A stretch of 64,000 nucleotides of DNA from Candidatus Woesebacteria bacterium (GTDB lineage: Bacteria > Patescibacteriota > Microgenomatia > UBA1400 > MFAQ01), in NCBI GenBank assembly GCA_035389185.1, contig DAOORK010000001.1:446218-510217 (forward strand). Direction: 5' to 3'. Under the pieces are notes generated by a model that saw nothing but the letters and a program-made list of their open reading frames with translations, was not told where the DNA came from and ran no database searches. The translations under genes and the position numbers were made by a program. Each line of letters begins with the position of its first letter. Within the stretch, counting starts at the first letter, position 1. Below are positions 71 through 44,398 of this stretch, in pieces.

Positions 71-439
71 TTAGATATTGTTTATCATTAAGCAAGGGAC
101 ATAAATGACTTCTGTTTTTTTATTCCCTATGTCTATCAGCCATTGTTCAAGGACATCGGCAATCACTCTGATTTTTATGCAGTCAGTAAGCGACGGATCG
201 AAATAGACCATAATTGGCAAAAAGGTGTCCCTGCTATATGGTATTGAACCATCTTCGTGCCAGATGTCTTGGTTATGATGTATTTTCAGACTATAGTGGG
301 CACTACTGACACTGAAGTTACTTTCGTATTTCAATCCAGTCCTATCGCATATATTATTGATGAGTTCAAGCCTTTTAGTGTCGCCATCGCTGCTGATCGG
401 AATGCCGAGATTTTCCGGAAACTGAATCTTGAAATGCAT
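71..439 (-). CDS. hypothetical small acidic protein (122 aa), member of putative W/F-x-x-D-G small-protein family
   Basis: ORF with ATG preceded by AAGGAGG (revcomp of 445-451) at 5-nt spacing; own terminator downstream; no recognisable domain. Confidence 0.6.
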   Translation of the reverse strand: MHFKIQFPENLGIPISSDGDTKRLELINNICDRTGLKYESNFSVSSAHYSLKIHHNQDIWHEDGSIPYSRDTFLPIMVYFDPSLTDCIKIRVIADVLEQWLIDIGNKKTEVIYVPCLMINNI

Positions 440-478: not shown

Positions 479-506
479 AAAAACCCCGGAGCACCAGGGT
501 TTTGGG
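479..506 (-). terminator. possible terminator-like hairpin after rpsI (AAAACCC...GGGTTTT)
   Basis: imperfect inverted repeat ccaaaaacccc / gggttttggg between rpsI stop and next gene start. Confidence 0.3.
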
Positions 507-4715: not shown

Positions 4716-4772
4716 TTTTGCTAGTGCCTAGACACTGGTACAACTCGTAAAGATGATTTTACTATATAAAGC

Positions 4773-4799
4773 ACAAAAAAGCCTGACAATTAGTCAGGC
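4773..4799 (-). terminator. intrinsic terminator (GCCTGAC-AATT-AGTCAGGC + U-run on - strand) after ORF 4818..5201
   Basis: 7-bp perfect stem 4781-4799, A-run 4775-4780 on + strand. Confidence 0.7.
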
Positions 4800-4817
4800 T
4801 TTCAACTTTAAATTTTT

Positions 4818-5201
4818 TTAGAGCTTCATGATCTCATCGGTGAGCTTGTCAACTGCTTCATCGAACTGTTCTAAAAACGTCGTAAGGGCGTCAAGAATCT
4901 GTTCGAGTGAATAAATAACAATATCCCGATCTCTTTTACTACTTGGCGAAAGAAGATTTAGATAAGAGAGTGGCTCGTCGATGGCGTAGACCAGATTTAT
5001 CGTCTGGACTTCTGGATCGACAACCAAGATGTATGGATCGTCATCTTCAACTGACCAAAATAACTTGCCATCTTTTATCGAGATCAATTTGGAAGATAAA
5101 ACAAACATATTAAAAAATGGATGTTTGATAAGCTCTTTATACTTATCAAAAACTTCGTCAGGGAATCTTTCTGTTTCGGCTGGAATAGTTTTGGAATCCA
5201 C
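4818..5201 (-). CDS. hypothetical small acidic protein (127 aa) inserted between map and infA
   Basis: GTG start preceded by AGGAGG (revcomp 5207-5212) at 5 nt; own terminator; no recognisable domain; contains KLFWSVEDDDPY motif. Confidence 0.6.
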   Translation of the reverse strand: MDSKTIPAETERFPDEVFDKYKELIKHPFFNMFVLSSKLISIKDGKLFWSVEDDDPYILVVDPEVQTINLVYAIDEPLSYLNLLSPSSKRDRDIVIYSLEQILDALTTFLEQFDEAVDKLTDEIMKL

Positions 5202-5298
5202 GCTCTCCTCCTGTAGGAAGCAAAAATTAAATTGTCAATTGATGAGGTATGTTAGCACGAATATGCCTAAATGTCAAGTTATGGGATATATTTTGTGC

Positions 5299-6033
5299 CT
5301 AGTTTATGGCGGTGAGGATGATGGGGCCGTTCTGGGTGATATAGACGGTTTCTTCGAAATAGCCTGTTAAGGAGCCGTCTTGAGTGGAGATGGTCCAACC
5401 GTCTGGGTCTTCAACTAAGTGCCAGTCGCCCATGGCATACATGGTTTCAATGGCTATCGTCTGATCTACGGAAAGGATGTCTTTTTTATTTTGTTTGTCG
5501 GCAAAGCAGGGAATCCAAGGATCCATGTGGAGTTTGCGGCCGATACCATGGCCTGTGAGGTCACGAATTGAGCTAAAACCGGCCCCTTCGACCGTTTGCT
5601 GCATAGCCTGACTGATATCGTAAACCGTGTTCCCTGGCAAAGCTACAGCAATAGCAGCATTTTCCGCCTTCCTACCGACATCAAGGAAACCGGTTATTCT
5701 TGGATCAAGGGGGGGAATCTGAACGGTGATGGCAGTGTCAACATGATAGCCGTGATGAAAAAGTCCTAGATCAATTTTAACCACGTCTCCAGCTTTGAAG
5801 GGAGTCTTGTTGGGGATGCCGTGAACCATACCATCGTTAATGTTGATACAGGTGGCGTGATGATAGCCGGCCTCCATTTTGAAGGATGCTTTGTCTCCTC
5901 CTTCTTTGATTAGCCTATCGGCTAAAAATTCAATTTCCAGAGGAGTGACTCCAGCCTTAAGGGCGGCAACAAGTTGGCCTTTGATCCAGCCTAAACGGGC
6001 ACCACCTTCGGTCATGGCTTGAAGTTTTGTCAT
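5299..6033 (-). CDS. map: methionine aminopeptidase type I
   Basis: pita-bread fold motifs (GDVVKIDLG, metal-binding His/Asp/Glu pattern); 4-nt overlap with adk as in spc/alpha cluster. Confidence 0.93.
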   Translation of the reverse strand: MTKLQAMTEGGARLGWIKGQLVAALKAGVTPLEIEFLADRLIKEGGDKASFKMEAGYHHATCININDGMVHGIPNKTPFKAGDVVKIDLGLFHHGYHVDTAITVQIPPLDPRITGFLDVGRKAENAAIAVALPGNTVYDISQAMQQTVEGAGFSSIRDLTGHGIGRKLHMDPWIPCFADKQNKKDILSVDQTIAIETMYAMGDWHLVEDPDGWTISTQDGSLTGYFEETVYITQNGPIILTAIN

Positions 6034-6604: not shown

Positions 6605-7888
6605 TTAATCCAAGAACTTATCGTAACTGTACATATAGAGCTGTGAGTTAACAGACTTGAGAATTTCGAGCACAACCGAGACAACAATGAGAATACTGGT
6701 ACCCCCCATTGAGAGAGAGGTGATACTAGTTGCCTTGGAGATAATCGAGGGGAAAATAGCCACGAGACCGAGGAAACCGGCACCAACTAAAGTAATCCTT
6801 TTGAGAACGAAATTTAAGTAGTCGACGGTGTTGGGCCCTGGACGGATACCGGGGATAAAAGAGCCTGAAGAACGAAGATCTTTGGCAATTTTTTCCGGGT
6901 TAAAAACCACGGCAGTATAAAAATAAGTAAAGGCAACAACCAGAAAGAAATAAATACCGTTGTAAACGGGACTGCCGGAAGCAAAAAGATTGTTGAGAGA
7001 GTTAGCAAAATTGACAACTCCCGGATTGTTAACATTTGCCAGTACCCGACTGAGAAGACTGGGAATGAGCATAAAAGAGACGGCAAAAATAATGGGGATG
7101 ACGCCTGCTTGGTTTAAGCGAAGAGGTAGTGACCCTCCCGAAACAGCACTGTAGGAGGCTTGGCCTCGACGAGCGGACTGGATCGGAATTTCTCTTGTGG
7201 CTTCACCAACACGGACAATGGCGTAAACGGCGGCTAAAGCAAAGATGAAGAAGATTAGATAGGAGAAAATCTTGGTTTGATCCATGGCGGTAAAGGTCTG
7301 AACTACATCGATTGGCAAACGGCAGACAATACCAACAAAGATGATCATGCTGATGCCATTTCCCAACCCGTAGTCGTTGAGCTGTTCTCCAAGCCAGATT
7401 AAAAGACAGGTACCGGCGGCAAGAGTAAAGATAATTGAAGCTAATTGAAGTGGGTCGGCCGTTGTTACCAGGTTTTCTTTGTTTAGAATAAAAACGATAG
7501 CGAAAGCCTGAAGGAAACACAAGGGAACGGTGAGAAGACGAGTGTATTGATTGATTTTTTGACGACCGTAGTCCCCTTCTTTTTGGAGGGCTTCCAGTTT
7601 GGGAATTACCATACCCAACATCTGAATAATAATGGAGGCATTGATGTATGGATTGAGACCGAGAGCCATAATGGAGAAGTTTCCCATGGTACCGCCGGAG
7701 AAAATATCGAGAAGGGAAAGAACTGCCGAGGAATCAAAAAGGTTTCTTAGGGCAACAAGATTGATTCCCGGAGCCGGGATATGAGCAATTAAACGAAAAA
7801 TGGCAATAATAATGGCCGTAAAAATCAGACGACGACGAAGGTCTTTGATTTTCAAAACTGCACGAAGGGGTGCTAATAAATTGTTCAT
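6605..7888 (-). CDS. secY: preprotein translocase subunit SecY (start trimmed to internal [14 protein letters not shown])
   Basis: 10 TM segments, SecY signature; ORF track start 7966 adds 26 non-SecY residues overlapping the terminator hairpin, so ATG at 7888 preferred. Confidence 0.92.
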
Positions 7889-7955
7889 TGGTTTTATTTT
7901 AACAGTTTGCTTTGGATAGAATAGGCAAGAAAGGATTTTACAACAAATTGAGAAT

Positions 7956-7980
7956 AAAAAAACCACCCCGGGAGGGGTGG
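7956..7980 (-). terminator. intrinsic terminator (CCACCCCGGGAGGGGTGG + U-run on - strand) after ORF 7988..8479
   Basis: perfect palindrome 7963-7980; A7 run 7956-7962; near-identical to hairpin at 47-64. Confidence 0.7.
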
Positions 7981-7987
7981 TAAAAAC

Positions 7988-8479
7988 TTAATTGGAATCA
8001 ATGATACGGATGATATTTGATGCATTTTCACTGTCTATAATGACTGTCGGGGAAAGCTCTTCAATGTCGAGTGTGTGAAAATACTGGTTAAAAAATTCGT
8101 TTAATTTTGCTTTGGTTTCCTTGCTATCTTCTTCGAGTGGATCACGAAGGTGAGCTGTTAAGTACTCTTGTTCTTTTTTCTCAATTATTTCAGAAAAATC
8201 AGGGTTGGTAATACAGATTTTGTTTCCCAGGCGAAGGAGCAGTCGATTTCCGAGATTAAGAATTTTTTCCGATGACTCTGTGCTAAGGATATCTCCAATT
8301 TTCTTAAGCGCAGGATACAATTTTGAGGCAATATCGGCATTATTCTCCGAAAAATGAACAACATCTCCATCTGAATCGTATAGGTAGACTTGCGGAAACC
8401 AAGAGCTGACGTCTATTGCCGGTAAGATCTGAATAAAACCTTTTGATAAAGCAAAGCGAAACGCTTCTTTTTTCTCCAT
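7988..8479 (-). CDS. hypothetical acidic protein (163 aa), paralog of 8558..8935, inserted between rplO and secY
   Basis: ATG preceded by AAGGAG; shares SSWFPQVYLYDSDGD motif with neighbour (NWFPDVRLYDWQGN); own terminator. Confidence 0.65.
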   Translation of the reverse strand: MEKKEAFRFALSKGFIQILPAIDVSSWFPQVYLYDSDGDVVHFSENNADIASKLYPALKKIGDILSTESSEKILNLGNRLLLRLGNKICITNPDFSEIIEKKEQEYLTAHLRDPLEEDSKETKAKLNEFFNQYFHTLDIEELSPTVIIDSENASNIIRIIDSN

Positions 8480-8523
8480 GTTACTCTCCTTATGTTAAGT
8501 TACTTTTGAGGGGAATTATACAT

Positions 8524-8554
8524 TAAAAAAAGCTACCTCGGGTGGGGTGGTAAG
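8524..8554 (-). terminator. degenerate copy of the CCCGGG-type hairpin terminator after ORF 8558..8935
   Basis: A8 run 8524-8531 then CTACCTCGGGTGGGGTGGTAAG; matches element at 7963-7985 at about 20 of 23 positions. Confidence 0.45.
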
Positions 8555-8557
8555 AAC

Positions 8558-8935
8558 TCAAATTTTTTCGATGGCTTTGACGAGGGCTTCTGCTGCTTCG
8601 CTATCAATTGTGATAAGCGAGTTTTTTATGCGTTCTGATTTATTCGTTTCTTTTGGAAACAGGTAAAGAAAGCCTGCGATAACAGCAAAGGTGAGTTCGT
8701 CGAAGTCACTAGAAAAATCATCAATGTCACGATCGGTGTGATTTCGACTATCAAAAGAACCAAGAAAGGTTTCTTTTAGAACGTCATAAAGACGCAAAAC
8801 ATCAGATTTCACCATCCAAACGGTTTGATTTCCTTGCCAATCATAGAGGCGAACGTCCGGAAACCAGTTGTCTCTATCACCATGAGGCTCAGAAACAATG
8901 GCATAACCGTCAGTTAAAACGATCTTTTGTGCCAC
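8558..8935 (-). CDS. hypothetical acidic protein (125 aa), paralog of 7988..8479
   Basis: GTG start preceded by AAGGAGG (revcomp 8941-8947); WFP-x-V-x-LYD motif shared with neighbour. Confidence 0.65.
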   Translation of the reverse strand: MAQKIVLTDGYAIVSEPHGDRDNWFPDVRLYDWQGNQTVWMVKSDVLRLYDVLKETFLGSFDSRNHTDRDIDDFSSDFDELTFAVIAGFLYLFPKETNKSERIKNSLITIDSEAAEALVKAIEKI

Positions 8936-8977
8936 TTATCCTCCTTTATATTTTAAGTTGCTTTATGGGATTGTACC

Positions 8978-9006
8978 AAAAAAAGACCCCTTGGGGGGTC
9001 TTTTTT
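8978..9006 (-). terminator. bidirectional hairpin terminator (GACCCCTTGGGGGGTC flanked by A-run and T-run) after rplO
   Basis: stem 8985-9000; A7 upstream, T6 downstream. Confidence 0.65.
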
Positions 9007-9021
9007 AGTTTTAAATTTTAG

Positions 9022-9471
9022 TTACTTAGAAAAGGTGTATTTGCCGCCAGCTTTTTCGATAGCTTTGATAGCTCCGGCCGTGGCAAGAACATTAATCTCA
9101 AGTGCTTTCTCAAGTTTGCCGGTCTGGACTATCTTAAAGCCACGTTTGGCTTCTTTGTCGCTGATTTTTAAGATTTTTATTAGAGCTGTGGCATCGACTA
9201 TTGCTTTGTCTTCAAAATATTTGGAAAGAATATCAAAGTTGACGACAATAGGCTGGAGTTTAATGACTTGGAAGCGGTGTTTACCTTTGATAAAAGGGGT
9301 ACGGCGAACAATAGGTAGCTGACCACCTTCAAACCAGAGAGGCATGGTGCCACGAGTCTTTTGACCTTTTTGGCCACGGCCGACAGTGTGACCGCCAACT
9401 CCTGAGCCATATCCACGTCCAAGACGTTTTTTGCTGGTTTTGGTTGATTTAGGAAGATTTGACAATAACAT
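9022..9471 (-). CDS. rplO: 50S ribosomal protein L15 (uL15)
   Basis: Gly/Arg-rich N-terminus GRGYGSGVGGHTVGRGQKGQKTRG. Confidence 0.93.
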   Translation of the reverse strand: MLLSNLPKSTKTSKKRLGRGYGSGVGGHTVGRGQKGQKTRGTMPLWFEGGQLPIVRRTPFIKGKHRFQVIKLQPIVVNFDILSKYFEDKAIVDATALIKILKISDKEAKRGFKIVQTGKLEKALEINVLATAGAIKAIEKAGGKYTFSK

Positions 9472-9476
9472 AGTCT

Positions 9477-10004
9477 TTAGGCTTTAAGTTCTTTAAGAAG
9501 TTGATATTTGCGAGCGAGAGTTTCAATCTGTTTTAGGGCTTTGAAAGTAGCGCGAGCGTTACTGGTCTTGTTGCCAGAGCCTAATGATTTACAGACGATG
9601 TCGGTGATTCCAGAAGCTTCAACGACGGCACGGACGGAAGAACCAGCGATAATACCGGTACCTTTGGGAGCAGGACGGAAAAGAACCTTGGCGGCGCCGT
9701 ATTTGGAGATGGTTTCGTAAGGAATAGTGCCGTTGACCAGAGGAACCTGGACAAGATCACGATTACCGAGGCGGATGGCTTTTTTGATGGCATCAGCGAC
9801 GTTAGGAGCCTTGGCAAGACCGAGGCCGACCTTACCTTTTTTGTCACCGGTAACGACTAAGGCTGAAAAGGAGACATTGTTGCCACCTTGAGTTTTTTTG
9901 CTAACACGGCGGATCTGAAGAACTTGTTCAAAACCATCTTGCTGAGGACGGTCATCTCTTCTGGGACCACGCATGTTGTTGTTGGGTTTATTTGAAGGAT
10001 TCAT
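9477..10004 (-). CDS. rpsE: 30S ribosomal protein S5 (uS5)
   Basis: dsRBD plus S5 C-terminal domain motifs (GSSVRAVVEASGITDIVCKSLGS). Confidence 0.95.
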   Translation of the reverse strand: MNPSNKPNNNMRGPRRDDRPQQDGFEQVLQIRRVSKKTQGGNNVSFSALVVTGDKKGKVGLGLAKAPNVADAIKKAIRLGNRDLVQVPLVNGTIPYETISKYGAAKVLFRPAPKGTGIIAGSSVRAVVEASGITDIVCKSLGSGNKTSNARATFKALKQIETLARKYQLLKELKA

Positions 10005-21267: not shown

Positions 21268-23325
21268 TTATTTACGATGGAAATGCCTTTTACCTTTTGA
21301 GTGATGATGACTTTCGGGGTAAGAGGATTGAACCTGACGATAGAAATCCGGAGCAATTTCTTTTAGCCAACTTCGTTTGATCTCGAGACAGTTACAGGCA
21401 AAAGTTTTGCCACGAGGGCTGATAAAGATTTCATTGGAAATAATTAGAGAACCTTTAGCAGGGAGACGATGGAACAGGATTGATCCCGGATGCACGAAAA
21501 TATTATTCTTTGTATCGTCGATTTTACGGAATGATGATCGGCCGACACTTTGCATAAGATTGCCAAGGAGACCGGCGGCAATAGCTTTGCCCAAAGAGTT
21601 TTTATCGATAAAGTTCGAAAGGTGCACATCAAAAGTAATGTCATGAGCTTCGAGAACATCGAGAATATCTTGGCGTACATTTCTAGCTTCTGCGAGGGCT
21701 TTTTCGTTAAGATAATTTTTCTTGGCCCAGGTATCACTAAAGTCACTTTTTTCGTAGCTTTTCCAAACATTAAGTAAGATATCGAAGTCCGACTCGGCAT
21801 CTTTTTGGAACTTGTGATGAGCTCTGTCTGCATCCAGCTGAAGTTCCTCTTCCGAAGGTCTGACAAAAATGTTTTTGCCGTCAAGGAAGGAAGCGATGAT
21901 AGTAACAGCATTTACGCACTGAAGGTCGGATTTTAGGGCTTCAATGATCATGCGGCCCAGATGAGGTTCAAGACTAAGTTCAACTAACCACTCGCCGACC
22001 TCAGTAAGCTGGCCATTGTCATCAAGGGCACCTAGAGTATTAAGGCTCTTCAGGGCTTGTCTAATAGCTTCCTTTCCAGGGTGATCTAAAAAGTCGAAAC
22101 CTTCAATGTCGCGGATACCAACCTTCTTCATGGCCAGTATAACCTGAGCCAGATTTGAGCGTTGAATCTCTGGAGTAGGAAAAAGAGGTCGCCTTTTGAG
22201 GCTATCTTCAGAAAATAAACGGTAACAGTAACCCGGAGCGGTACGACCGGCTCGGCCTTTTCGCTGTTCTAGACCACTGAGAGCATGTTCTGTCAGGATG
22301 AGCTGTTCCGTGCCTGATCGGGGGTTAAATTGATTTTGTTTGATTAACCCAGAATCGATGACATGGATGATACCGTCGATGGTGATCGAAGTTTCGGCAA
22401 TGTTGGTGGCAACAATAATCTTGCGTTTATCCATGGGCTCAAAAATACGATCTTGGTCTTCGGGCTGCATTTCAGAATGGAGTGGAATAAGCTCAATATC
22501 CTTTTCACCTACTAGAGAGGTTATCTTTTCGACGGTGTCGGCAATCTCCTGTTTCCCAGGCATGAAGATGAGAATATCGCCGTCCAGGTGTCGATCAATA
22601 ATTGACTTAACTTTTTCGGCAGCACCTTGGGTGAAGTCATAGTTGAAGGACACTTCATCTTCATAAGAAACCTGAACCGGAAATACTTTCCCTTCAATAG
22701 CCACGGAGTTTTCTTGATCACCATTGCCAATGTAGGATGCAAAGCGATTTCTCTCTATAGTGGCTGAAGTAATAACAACACGAACCTGGTCAAGACCTGA
22801 TTGCTGGCGGCGTTTATTGACATCTTTAAGGAGACCAAGACAAAGATCAATGTTGAGGCTGCGTTCGTGGGCTTCATCAATCATGACAACGGAGTATTCC
22901 GTGAGAAGAGGATCAAACTGGATTTTTCGAAGAAGAATACCATCGGTCATGAAAGTAATGTCGGTTTGGGGGTTGGTGATATTTTCGAAGCGAACGTGAT
23001 AACCAACTTGATCACCAACTTCTGACTCCATCATACCGGCGACACGTTCGGTAATGCTCTTTGTCGCGACACGACGAGGTTGAGTAACAGCAATACCACC
23101 CTCGAGTCCAAGTTCATCACGAAGTTCGAGAAGAAGCGGGGGCAAACAGGTGGTTTTGCCCGAGCCGGTTTCACCAATTAGGACAAAGTTAGAATGAAGA
23201 CGGATTTCCTGACGAAGGTGTTCTCGAAGTTGGACTACGGGGAGATTATCAAGATCTAAAAAAGCATATTCCGAGGATCGGTTACCACAAGTTTTTTCTG
23301 GTTGTTTTTGATTAGTTTCGACCAT
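21268..23325 (-). CDS. DEAH-box ATP-dependent RNA helicase, HrpB/HrpA-like (685 aa)
   Basis: Walker A GETGSGKTT, motif II DEAHERS, motif III SAT, motif VI QRKGRAGR; HA2/OB-like C-terminus; His-rich C-terminal tail. Confidence 0.85.
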   Translation of the reverse strand: MVETNQKQPEKTCGNRSSEYAFLDLDNLPVVQLREHLRQEIRLHSNFVLIGETGSGKTTCLPPLLLELRDELGLEGGIAVTQPRRVATKSITERVAGMMESEVGDQVGYHVRFENITNPQTDITFMTDGILLRKIQFDPLLTEYSVVMIDEAHERSLNIDLCLGLLKDVNKRRQQSGLDQVRVVITSATIERNRFASYIGNGDQENSVAIEGKVFPVQVSYEDEVSFNYDFTQGAAEKVKSIIDRHLDGDILIFMPGKQEIADTVEKITSLVGEKDIELIPLHSEMQPEDQDRIFEPMDKRKIIVATNIAETSITIDGIIHVIDSGLIKQNQFNPRSGTEQLILTEHALSGLEQRKGRAGRTAPGYCYRLFSEDSLKRRPLFPTPEIQRSNLAQVILAMKKVGIRDIEGFDFLDHPGKEAIRQALKSLNTLGALDDNGQLTEVGEWLVELSLEPHLGRMIIEALKSDLQCVNAVTIIASFLDGKNIFVRPSEEELQLDADRAHHKFQKDAESDFDILLNVWKSYEKSDFSDTWAKKNYLNEKALAEARNVRQDILDVLEAHDITFDVHLSNFIDKNSLGKAIAAGLLGNLMQSVGRSSFRKIDDTKNNIFVHPGSILFHRLPAKGSLIISNEIFISPRGKTFACNCLEIKRSWLKEIAPDFYRQVQSSYPESHHHSKGKRHFHRK

Positions 23326-23647: not shown

Positions 23648-23674
23648 AAAAAGTCCCCTATCAGGGGACTTTTT
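23648..23674. terminator. bidirectional intrinsic terminator after rpsG (AGTCCCC-TATC-AGGGGACT flanked by A5 and T5)
   Basis: 7-bp stem 23652-23669 with A-run 5' and T-run 3'. Confidence 0.7.
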
Positions 23675-44364: not shown

Positions 44365-44398
44365 AAAGAAAACCCCGCTGATTAGCGGGGCTTGTTTT
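44365..44398 (-). terminator. hairpin terminator (CCCCGCTG-ATTA-GCGGGG) after ORF 44412..44699
   Basis: stem 44373-44390; A-rich 5' on + strand (U-run on -), T-run 3' as well. Confidence 0.6.

Follow-up and report, generated by a model that had tools for sequence, protein, structure and literature searches.

Few gene pairs in prokaryotes are as conserved in their adjacency as rplO and secY. In the 64 kb stretch of DNA analysed here (the window, from contig DAOORK010000001.1), open reading frame (ORF) calling and homology give the minus-strand order rpsE (9477-10004), rplO, A125, B163, secY, adk and map, in which two small genes, A125 and B163, separate rplO from secY. These genes, the protein family to which they belong and the variable array of small genes that occupies the same junction in related genomes are the subject of this report. 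SecY is 71-80% identical to that of approximately 30 metagenome-assembled genomes labelled as, or clustering with, Candidatus Collierbacteria (Microgenomates, Candidate Phyla Radiation, CPR), and such comparisons place the window in Ca. Collierbacteria, a CPR lineage. The rpmD gene (uL30) is absent between rpsE and rplO in the window, an order that fits the missing uL30 reported for the CPR; Collierbacteria are without uL30 and bL9, and often without bS21 (PMC9297842). No structured RNA in the window matched Rfam at gathering thresholds.

Both A125 and B163 are real genes. An earlier reading of the window (the original prediction) had called minus-strand ORFs of 163 and 125 residues between rplO and secY, both encoding small acidic proteins with a shared N-terminal motif and each preceded by a canonical Shine-Dalgarno (SD) site, and this description is confirmed (Table 1). 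The SD sites, AAGGAGG for A125 and AAGGAG for B163, lie at normal spacing, and the isoelectric points (pI) of the two proteins are acidic within a family range of 4.3 to 8.45. In a single BLASTP comparison, A125 and B163 share 13 of 35 residues in their N-terminal parts (E = 7e-5). A family hidden Markov model (HMM) built without B163 and its near-identical relative recovered B163 (residues 7-161, E = 1e-16), and A125 was recovered in turn by the reciprocal leave-one-out model (4e-30). Judged from these alignments, A125 and B163 are true, anciently diverged paralogs. A neighbour-joining tree and a shared insertion put A125 in a short subfamily with the proteins of L069, L072_122 and L067 (L numbers denote loci of relatives), and in the same tree B163 groups with L072_154 and L071_152, which share its helical insert, and with the short L072_129. 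Since the two genes fall into different subfamilies and the short-then-long gene order is common to the window and L072, the duplication is old. The tandem paralog array of the original prediction therefore stands as regards paralogy, but it is not of recent origin: different subfamilies co-occur in the same order in L072.

Table 1. Features of the rplO-secY junction in the window (SD, Shine-Dalgarno site; signals are predicted from sequence and folding).
Feature	Position	Strand	Remarks
rplO (uL15)	9022-9471	-	Upstream anchor of the island; ORF and homology
rplO intrinsic terminator (predicted)	8982-9003	-	AAAGACCCC-CCAA-GGGGTCTTT plus T-run; folding energy -18.5 kcal/mol, z -3.4
A125 leader	8936-8981	-	TTGGTA 8974-8979; TGGTACAAT 8970-8978; -10-like TAAAAT 8950-8955 within AAGCAACTTAAAAT; SD 8940-8946
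A125	8558-8935	-	125 residues, GTG start, pI 4.56; short subfamily of the WFP family
Decayed cassette hairpin after A125	8532-8551	-	ACCACCCCACCCGAGGTAGC; T-run 8525-8531 beyond; -3.4 kcal/mol, z -0.5
B163 leader	8480-8524	-	Perfect extended -10 TGTATAAT 8515-8522; AAGTAACTTAACAT; SD 8486-8491
B163	7988-8479	-	163 residues, ATG start, pI 4.77; long subfamily of the WFP family; predicted helical insert in second repeat
Cassette hairpin after B163	7955-7981	-	ACCACCCC-TCCC-GGGGTGGT plus T7; predicted intrinsic terminator; hairpin proper 7962-7981, -15.5 kcal/mol, z -4.2; downstream breakpoint of exchanged segment
secY leader	7889-7954	-	No SD; extended -10 TGTTAAAAT 7896-7904, ending 7 nt before ATG 7888
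secY	6605-7888	-	True start ATG 7888; bounds the island downstream; protein 80% identical to SecY of Collierbacteria

The alignments characterise what we term the WFP family by an N-terminal block, the WFP motif, in which L..G[FY]A.V is followed after 6-8 variable residues by WFP.[IV].[FL][FY]D..G, and by a C-terminal block, [IV].ID...A..L...I. Both window proteins cluster with proteins encoded in the rplO-secY gap of L001, L004, L005, L008, L012 and L033. The family alignment contains no conserved stretch of 7-10 residues; a word-indexed search of 5.8 billion proteins returned near-identical clusters only, or four proteins when a profile was the query, and a narrower alignment led to one more metagenome locus. 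When 1.84 billion cluster representatives were searched exhaustively with the family HMM, 13 small proteins (116-163 residues) and three long ones matched. The long proteins (P0005, P0006 and P0008, with E-values down to 1e-16) are arrays of PPC (pre-peptidase C-terminal) domains that match only the N-terminal hairpin, as G.A.V...[LF]YP.[IV].LY..G, many times over; because PPC is a different fold, the resemblance is at the level of a motif, and homology was rejected. All family members with readable context lie within the rplO-secY gap, where a WFP gene stands alone in L069/L070, L071 and L074, is one of several genes in L067 and L076, and makes up three of the five gene cassettes in L072. The gap of about half of the Collierbacteria species compared has no WFP gene and carries unrelated genes instead. 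As far as these searches reach, the WFP family is restricted to Ca. Collierbacteria. A phage origin was rejected, since viral contigs yielded no relative and the PHROGs no match. Databases annotate the family as 'hypothetical protein' at most. Scans of A125, B163, the WFP family and the other cassette families against Pfam, NCBIfam, PADLOC and PHROGs gave sub-threshold noise only, so that the early impression of proteins without a recognisable domain has held up in Pfam and the other sequence searches.

With uL15 and SecY placed by tblastn in every fetched locus, all 24 Collierbacteria loci with both genes present have an rplO-secY gap of 553-5049 bp, versus tens of bases in approximately 30 loci from other phyla, other Patescibacteria included. 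The original prediction was thus right that the two genes normally adjoin each other and that the junction is split here. However, with the gap open in 24 of 24 loci, the split is a lineage-wide trait, found in every Collierbacteria species examined, and not the oddity of one genome; what differs between species is the gene content. Nearly all gap genes are co-directional with the operon, and families of small proteins recur among them. The commonest occupant elsewhere, absent from the window, is a Cys-rich protein of approximately 165 residues (motif GCPNW...GCPP) whose gene adjoins secY in 11 loci (L003, L004, L005, L011, L016, L018, L021, L024, L026, L029 and L033); its match to DUF2284 (predicted metal-binding) is below threshold. 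Other occupants comprise several families without a database match, an M28-like protein (peptidase) and a membrane protein, and a methyltransferase, a Rieske protein, an ABC ATPase and an IS200-type transposase occur sporadically. Comparison of the gap families with phage (PHROGs) and defence (PADLOC) models gave only sub-threshold noise. One cassette hairpin in the gap of L008 has an insertion immediately past its T-run (4745-5330), an IS200-type Y1 transposase that carries subterminal hairpins of its own.

The spacers between gap genes follow a common plan, consisting of stop codon, hairpin, a run of 5-7 T, a -10-like box, often AAGCAACTTAAAAT, then AAGGAGG and the start codon. The hairpin takes the form (A)CC(C)ACCC(C)-loop-(G)GGGTGG(G)T, and the -10-like box is TGGTACAAT, TATAAT or TGTATAAT. 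Five nearly identical hairpins follow five genes of at least three families in L072. Approximately 50 copies of this CCACCC/GGGTGG type are present in Collierbacteria loci, nearly all of them within the rplO-secY gap, and zero in 385 kb of non-Collierbacteria loci. The window has an intact copy after B163, a decayed one after A125 and a compensated version after an ORF at 71-439. A simple terminator finder located 1.19 terminator-type sites per kb inside gaps versus 0.13 per kb in the flanks. The leaders are shared as well: the A125 leader, with its TTGGTA-18-TAAAAT arrangement, contains a linker type that recurs in L070, L008 and (three times) L072, and the B163 leader is 100% conserved with L001 and also present in L075. 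A terminator-type AAGGCCCC..GGGGTCTT hairpin like that of the window is also found 3' of rplO in L001, L006, L008, L024, L070, L071 and L074.

Hairpin terminators had been proposed after rplO and after each of the two small genes. A GC-rich stem-loop with a direct U-run is indeed present at 7962-7981 after B163 and at 8982-9003 after rplO, but not at 8532-8551, where the 'degenerate' copy after A125 is predicted to be unfolded. This copy carries two G-to-A changes, and its intact homolog in the close relative L075 folds at -14.5 kcal/mol. Since the hairpin has decayed in the window genome, transcription of A125 probably continues into B163. Upstream of secY, every Collierbacteria locus inspected has AACTGnTAAAATAAAACCAATG (conserved in L070, L071, L072 and L074); secY has no SD site and carries its own conserved TGnTAAAAT directly before the ATG. 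These signals suggest a separate secY mRNA and, because the extended -10 ends 7 nt before the ATG, one that may be leaderless or near-leaderless. The original prediction that secY-adk-map is uncoupled from the upstream ribosomal protein genes is accordingly supported: the rplO terminator, the cassette -10 boxes and the secY -10 all fit putative separate transcription units. Of the two cassette hairpins, only that after B163 would still be functional in the window. Each unit of the array is a self-contained cassette with a predicted -10-type promoter right past the preceding T-run, a strong SD site, a small ORF and a C-rich/G-rich hairpin with its T-run. In the arrangement we envisage, ribosomal protein transcription would stop at the rplO terminator and restart for A125; the A125 transcript would continue into B163 and stop after it, and a new start would occur at the secY-proximal promoter.

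Several comparisons indicate lateral exchange at the locus. B163 is 94.9% identical in DNA to its copy in L001, with a synonymous divergence (dS) of 0.067, and L002, which is from a different sample, agrees. By contrast, the flanking rpsE, rplO and secY genes are only 75-81% identical to those of L001, and dS is 1.0-1.8 for S5, L15 and SecY. The block of high identity runs from the T-run after the upstream hairpin to the loop of the downstream hairpin. The identity of B163, far above that of its flanks, and the breakpoints at hairpins indicate a recent lateral exchange. Upstream of B163, L001 has a gene for a 183-residue membrane protein in place of A125, while the closer relative L075 has the window arrangement of rplO, A125, intact hairpin and B163 leader. 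The rplO gene itself is a mosaic: between the window (9022-9471) and L075 (193-642), dS is 0.14 in the first 75 codons and 1.64 in the last 74, a jump that points to the end of a recombination tract within rplO. Further downstream, the terminator and A125 are once more close to L075 (dS 0.14). By these measures, recombination is active around the locus, and at least one cassette has recently passed from one diverged lineage to another. To account for the data, ordinary homologous recombination at the conserved linkers of 60-90 nt would be sufficient, and Pfam scans of 30 ORFs outside the ribosomal protein block of the window revealed no integrase, recombinase or transposase. Widespread recent transfer of cassettes was considered and rejected, since cassette proteins are less conserved than SecY among GTDB species pairs; this lower conservation points to fast divergence, together with gain and loss, as the source of most of the variation. 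Cassettes are gained and lost, undergo duplication and occasionally pass from one lineage to another, the exchange apparently proceeding via recombination at the conserved hairpin and linker sequences.

To obtain information on the fold, AlphaFold2 models of both proteins were compared with solved structures. The models are of moderate quality, with shallow alignments (6 sequences for A125 and 15 for B163) and one confident model in five per run; the predicted local distance difference test score is 72.9 for A125 and 77.2 for B163, and the predicted template modelling (TM) score is 0.70 for both. The A125 model consists of four strands (2-7, 10-15, 27-32 and 37-41) and a helix (43-58), a disordered linker (61-79), and a second repeat in which three of the four expected strands are detected (81-86, 89-94 and 108-110) ahead of a helix (112-124). 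B163 follows the same plan with four strands and a helix, then three strands, a helical insert (93-142), and one last strand and a helix. The two separate predictions therefore both show a bbbba-linker-bbbba topology in one chain (b, strand; a, helix), and b-b-b-b-a-linker-b-b-b-b-a is the definition of the type I PC4-like domain given by Janowski and Niessing (PMC7549692). PURA chains occupy Foldseek ranks 1-5 (probability 0.85-0.98, TM 0.41-0.48), and the top structural matches of both models are the solved structures of Pur-alpha, SsgB, MRP1/2 and Whirly. When the N- and C-terminal halves were compared as profiles (hhalign, P ~1e-3), an internal repeat received weak support. At the sequence level, Pfam scans of both proteins and 16 family members gave nothing relevant, PurA, Whirly, SsgA, MRP and PC4 included, and the family HMM had 0 matches at E<=10 against all PDB sequences. 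Taken together, we consider it likely that A125 and B163 adopt a single-chain type I PC4-like (PUR/Whirly) fold, with two bbbba repeats per protein and, in B163, a helical insert in the second.

Our preferred reading, to which we assign a probability of roughly 0.55, is that A125 and B163 are WFP paralogs in a variable array of self-contained cassettes that splits rplO from secY, and that they are dispensable, non-enzymatic binding proteins of PC4-like fold. The only conserved residues of the family are glycines, a proline and those of the hydrophobic core, with no conserved polar or basic ones, and the window proteins carry net charges of -9 and -10. This purely structural conservation, together with a charge of about -10 and absence from many sister species, suggests a dispensable, non-catalytic binding module. 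By analogy with SsgB, an acidic protein of Whirly fold, its partner would most likely be a protein or another basic molecule rather than a single-stranded nucleic acid. Several points weigh against this reading. Only one transfer is clear at the level of a cassette, and otherwise the cassette proteins diverge faster than SecY, as they would in vertical descent. The finding that no WFP member lies outside the gap comes from an HMM scan of all ORFs of the window and 74 loci, and its scope is those loci. B163 shows a ratio of nonsynonymous to synonymous divergence (dN/dS) of 0.74 versus L001, calculated from few substitutions, and its constraint may be relaxed. The functional inference draws on negative evidence, and the acidic charge is not conserved across the family, in which pI reaches 8.45. 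Finally, promoters, terminators and read-through are deduced from sequence.

The fold itself suggests a different function, because most of its solved members bind single-stranded nucleic acids (PMC7549692). A125 and B163 could accordingly be PUR/Whirly-type binders of single-stranded DNA or RNA, for example small regulators acting on the cassette leader AAGCAACTTAAAAT or on another transcript, as are Borrelia Bpur and eukaryotic Pur-alpha. Base stacking could be provided by the conserved aromatics (W and F of the WFP motif, and the F/Y preceding the D..G turn), and the leader motif is common to the WFP cassettes of the window, of L070 and to three in L072. Yet the WFP cassettes of L071, L074 and L067 have a different promoter module, and the motif also precedes a gene of a different family in L008, so that it is not WFP-specific. 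Given the strongly negative charge of the window proteins, and with neither a conserved basic residue nor a sequence match to PurA, Whirly, MRP or PC4, we regard nucleic acid binding as unlikely, if still the main rival of our preferred reading. Less probable still is the proposal, carried over from the original prediction, that the two genes encode antitoxin-like immunity proteins against polymorphic toxins, in an orphan paralog array. In its favour, the WFP proteins are small and often acidic, are encoded as tandem paralogs (two in the window, three in L072), diverge fast, belong to a variable island and show lateral exchange, all of which is circumstantial. Against this, the gap ORFs scanned (approximately 20 family representatives plus the larger singletons) and the window ORFs scanned contain no toxin domain or secretion-system gene, no defence or immunity model in PADLOC or Pfam matched, and the WFP protein is the sole gap gene in several species. 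The SUKH/Syd-like or other immunity fold that had been anticipated was not borne out either: SUKH, Syd and other solved immunity proteins are absent from the fold-search matches, which are of the PUR/Whirly (PC4-like) type instead.

The same prediction had also considered a lineage-specific factor associated with the ribosome or SecY, Syd-like or standing in for a missing ribosomal protein, with the position reflecting functional coupling. That all members with known context share one gap, in a lineage without uL30, bL9 and often bS21 (PMC9297842), would agree with such a role. However, about half of the species compared have no WFP gene in the gap, the cassettes have promoter- and terminator-like signals of their own, the acidic charge is unlike that of ribosomal proteins, and neither a structural match to Syd/SUKH nor a match to a ribosomal or Sec-accessory family was found. 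Moreover, the gap is a general insertion site (IS200 transposase, methyltransferase, M28-like peptidase and others), and because the slot accepts so many unrelated genes, position is weak evidence for a ribosome or SecY role, which we consider very improbable. Immunity, SecY or ribosome roles are thus not supported. That the ORFs are chance frames in a long spacer, or decayed remnants, would fit their bare 'hypothetical protein' annotation and the dN/dS of B163, but is effectively refuted by at least 13 divergent homolog clusters with conserved motifs and in-frame indels, by the strong SD sites, by purifying selection on A125 (dN/dS 0.25 versus L075) and by the agreement of two fold predictions. 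A further idea concerns the array and not its proteins: the gap might be a cassette-capture platform, integron-like in function and distinct in mechanism, in which the CC(C)ACCC(C)-loop-(G)GGGTGG(G) hairpin serves as a recombination site for an unlinked recombinase. A candidate may be an HUH/Y1 enzyme like the IS200-type transposase adjoining one such hairpin in L008. We consider this a long shot; if true, a genome-reduced CPR bacterium could swap small accessory genes into a defined slot of a highly conserved cluster.

Comparable insertions were noted at other junctions. Between secY and adk, L017, L023, L029, L030, L031 and L074 carry a 285-residue predicted membrane protein, an M23 peptidase or a conserved 127-residue protein, all unrelated to the rplO-secY cassette families. 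In the window, an acidic 127-residue ORF (pI 4.3; 4818-5201, minus strand) lies between map and infA, with its own SD site and a different terminator hairpin (4779-4801). The search for relatives led solely to a tandem pair of genes between rplO and secY in L027 (29% identity, E 3e-5), which indicates that one cassette family can occupy different operon junctions in different species. Downstream of rpsI, the 122-residue orphan ORF at 71-439 (minus strand) has the cassette layout of terminator, TGGTATAAT, AAGGAGG, ORF and hairpin, with hairpins at 483-500 and 47-67; the 3' hairpin, CCTCCCC-ACCC-GGGGAGG, differs from the B163 hairpin in a single base pair, changed in a compensatory manner. Intrinsic terminators throughout the window often have a -10 or extended -10 (TGTATAAT, TGGTATAAT) directly after them, for example at 44370-44393, 23650-23672 and 483-500 (minus strand), and such terminator-promoter modules seem to be a general way of organising intergenic regions in this genome. 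Separately, a 685-residue DEAH/HrpA-like helicase (DEAD, Helicase_C, HA2 and OB_NTP_bind domains; 21268-23325, minus strand) between rpsG and fusA breaks the usual rpsL-rpsG-fusA-tuf order of the str operon.

What is probably new here is both a sequence family with a known, if predicted, fold and the type of variable island that holds it at a highly conserved junction. Our literature searches turned up neither the WFP family nor a hypervariable cassette array that lies within the spc operon across a whole lineage. A junction that is open throughout a CPR lineage and occupied by a changing set of small, apparently self-expressed genes shows that a core translation and secretion cluster can host a hotspot of accessory genes even in very small genomes. 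With two universal marker genes as anchors, the locus is easily found and lends itself to following strain-level gene flux in uncultured Patescibacteria. Variable islands in marker-gene clusters may also break metagenome assemblies and affect the binning of ribosomal protein contigs.

Among known proteins, the type I PC4-like/Whirly/PUR group (Pur-alpha repeats I-II, plant Whirly p24 and trypanosome MRP1/2) resembles A125 and B163 in predicted single-chain topology at approximately 125 residues. The known members bind nucleic acids, whereas the window proteins are acidic without conserved basic residues and have no detectable sequence relation to the group; B163 in addition has a predicted helical insert of approximately 50 residues in repeat 2, and the WFP family occurs in one CPR lineage only. 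SsgB and the other SsgA-like proteins of actinomycetes belong to another phylum, and the WFP proteins differ from them in showing no SsgA sequence match and no link to cell-division genes, and in residing in cassettes inside the spc operon, unlike the ssg gene setting. Together with SsgB, the acidic WFP family would be one of few cases in which the PUR/Whirly fold may serve something other than nucleic acid binding. As regards the array, integron cassette arrays and CALINs (clusters of attC sites lacking integron integrases) likewise consist of co-directional, small and mostly uncharacterised ORFs, each followed by a conserved imperfect palindrome, with content that varies among relatives and cassette exchange with breakpoints at the palindromes. 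Unlike in integrons, no IntI or other integrase was found in the 64 kb window, the cassettes carry promoter-like sequences of their own, and the hairpins are 20-nt terminator-type structures (stems of 7-8 bp, loops of 4-6 nt and a T-run) without attC R/L boxes or GTTRRRY, attC sites measuring 55-140 nt. The rplO-secY array is thus like an integron array in form and fails the defining tests of one. It also resembles reported insertions into conserved operon clusters, in which a few foreign genes interrupt the cluster. Those insertions, however, lie mostly between operons and consist of fixed gene sets, whereas the array described here lies inside the spc operon, between rplO and secY, is present in every species examined, and is hypervariable and built of cassettes.

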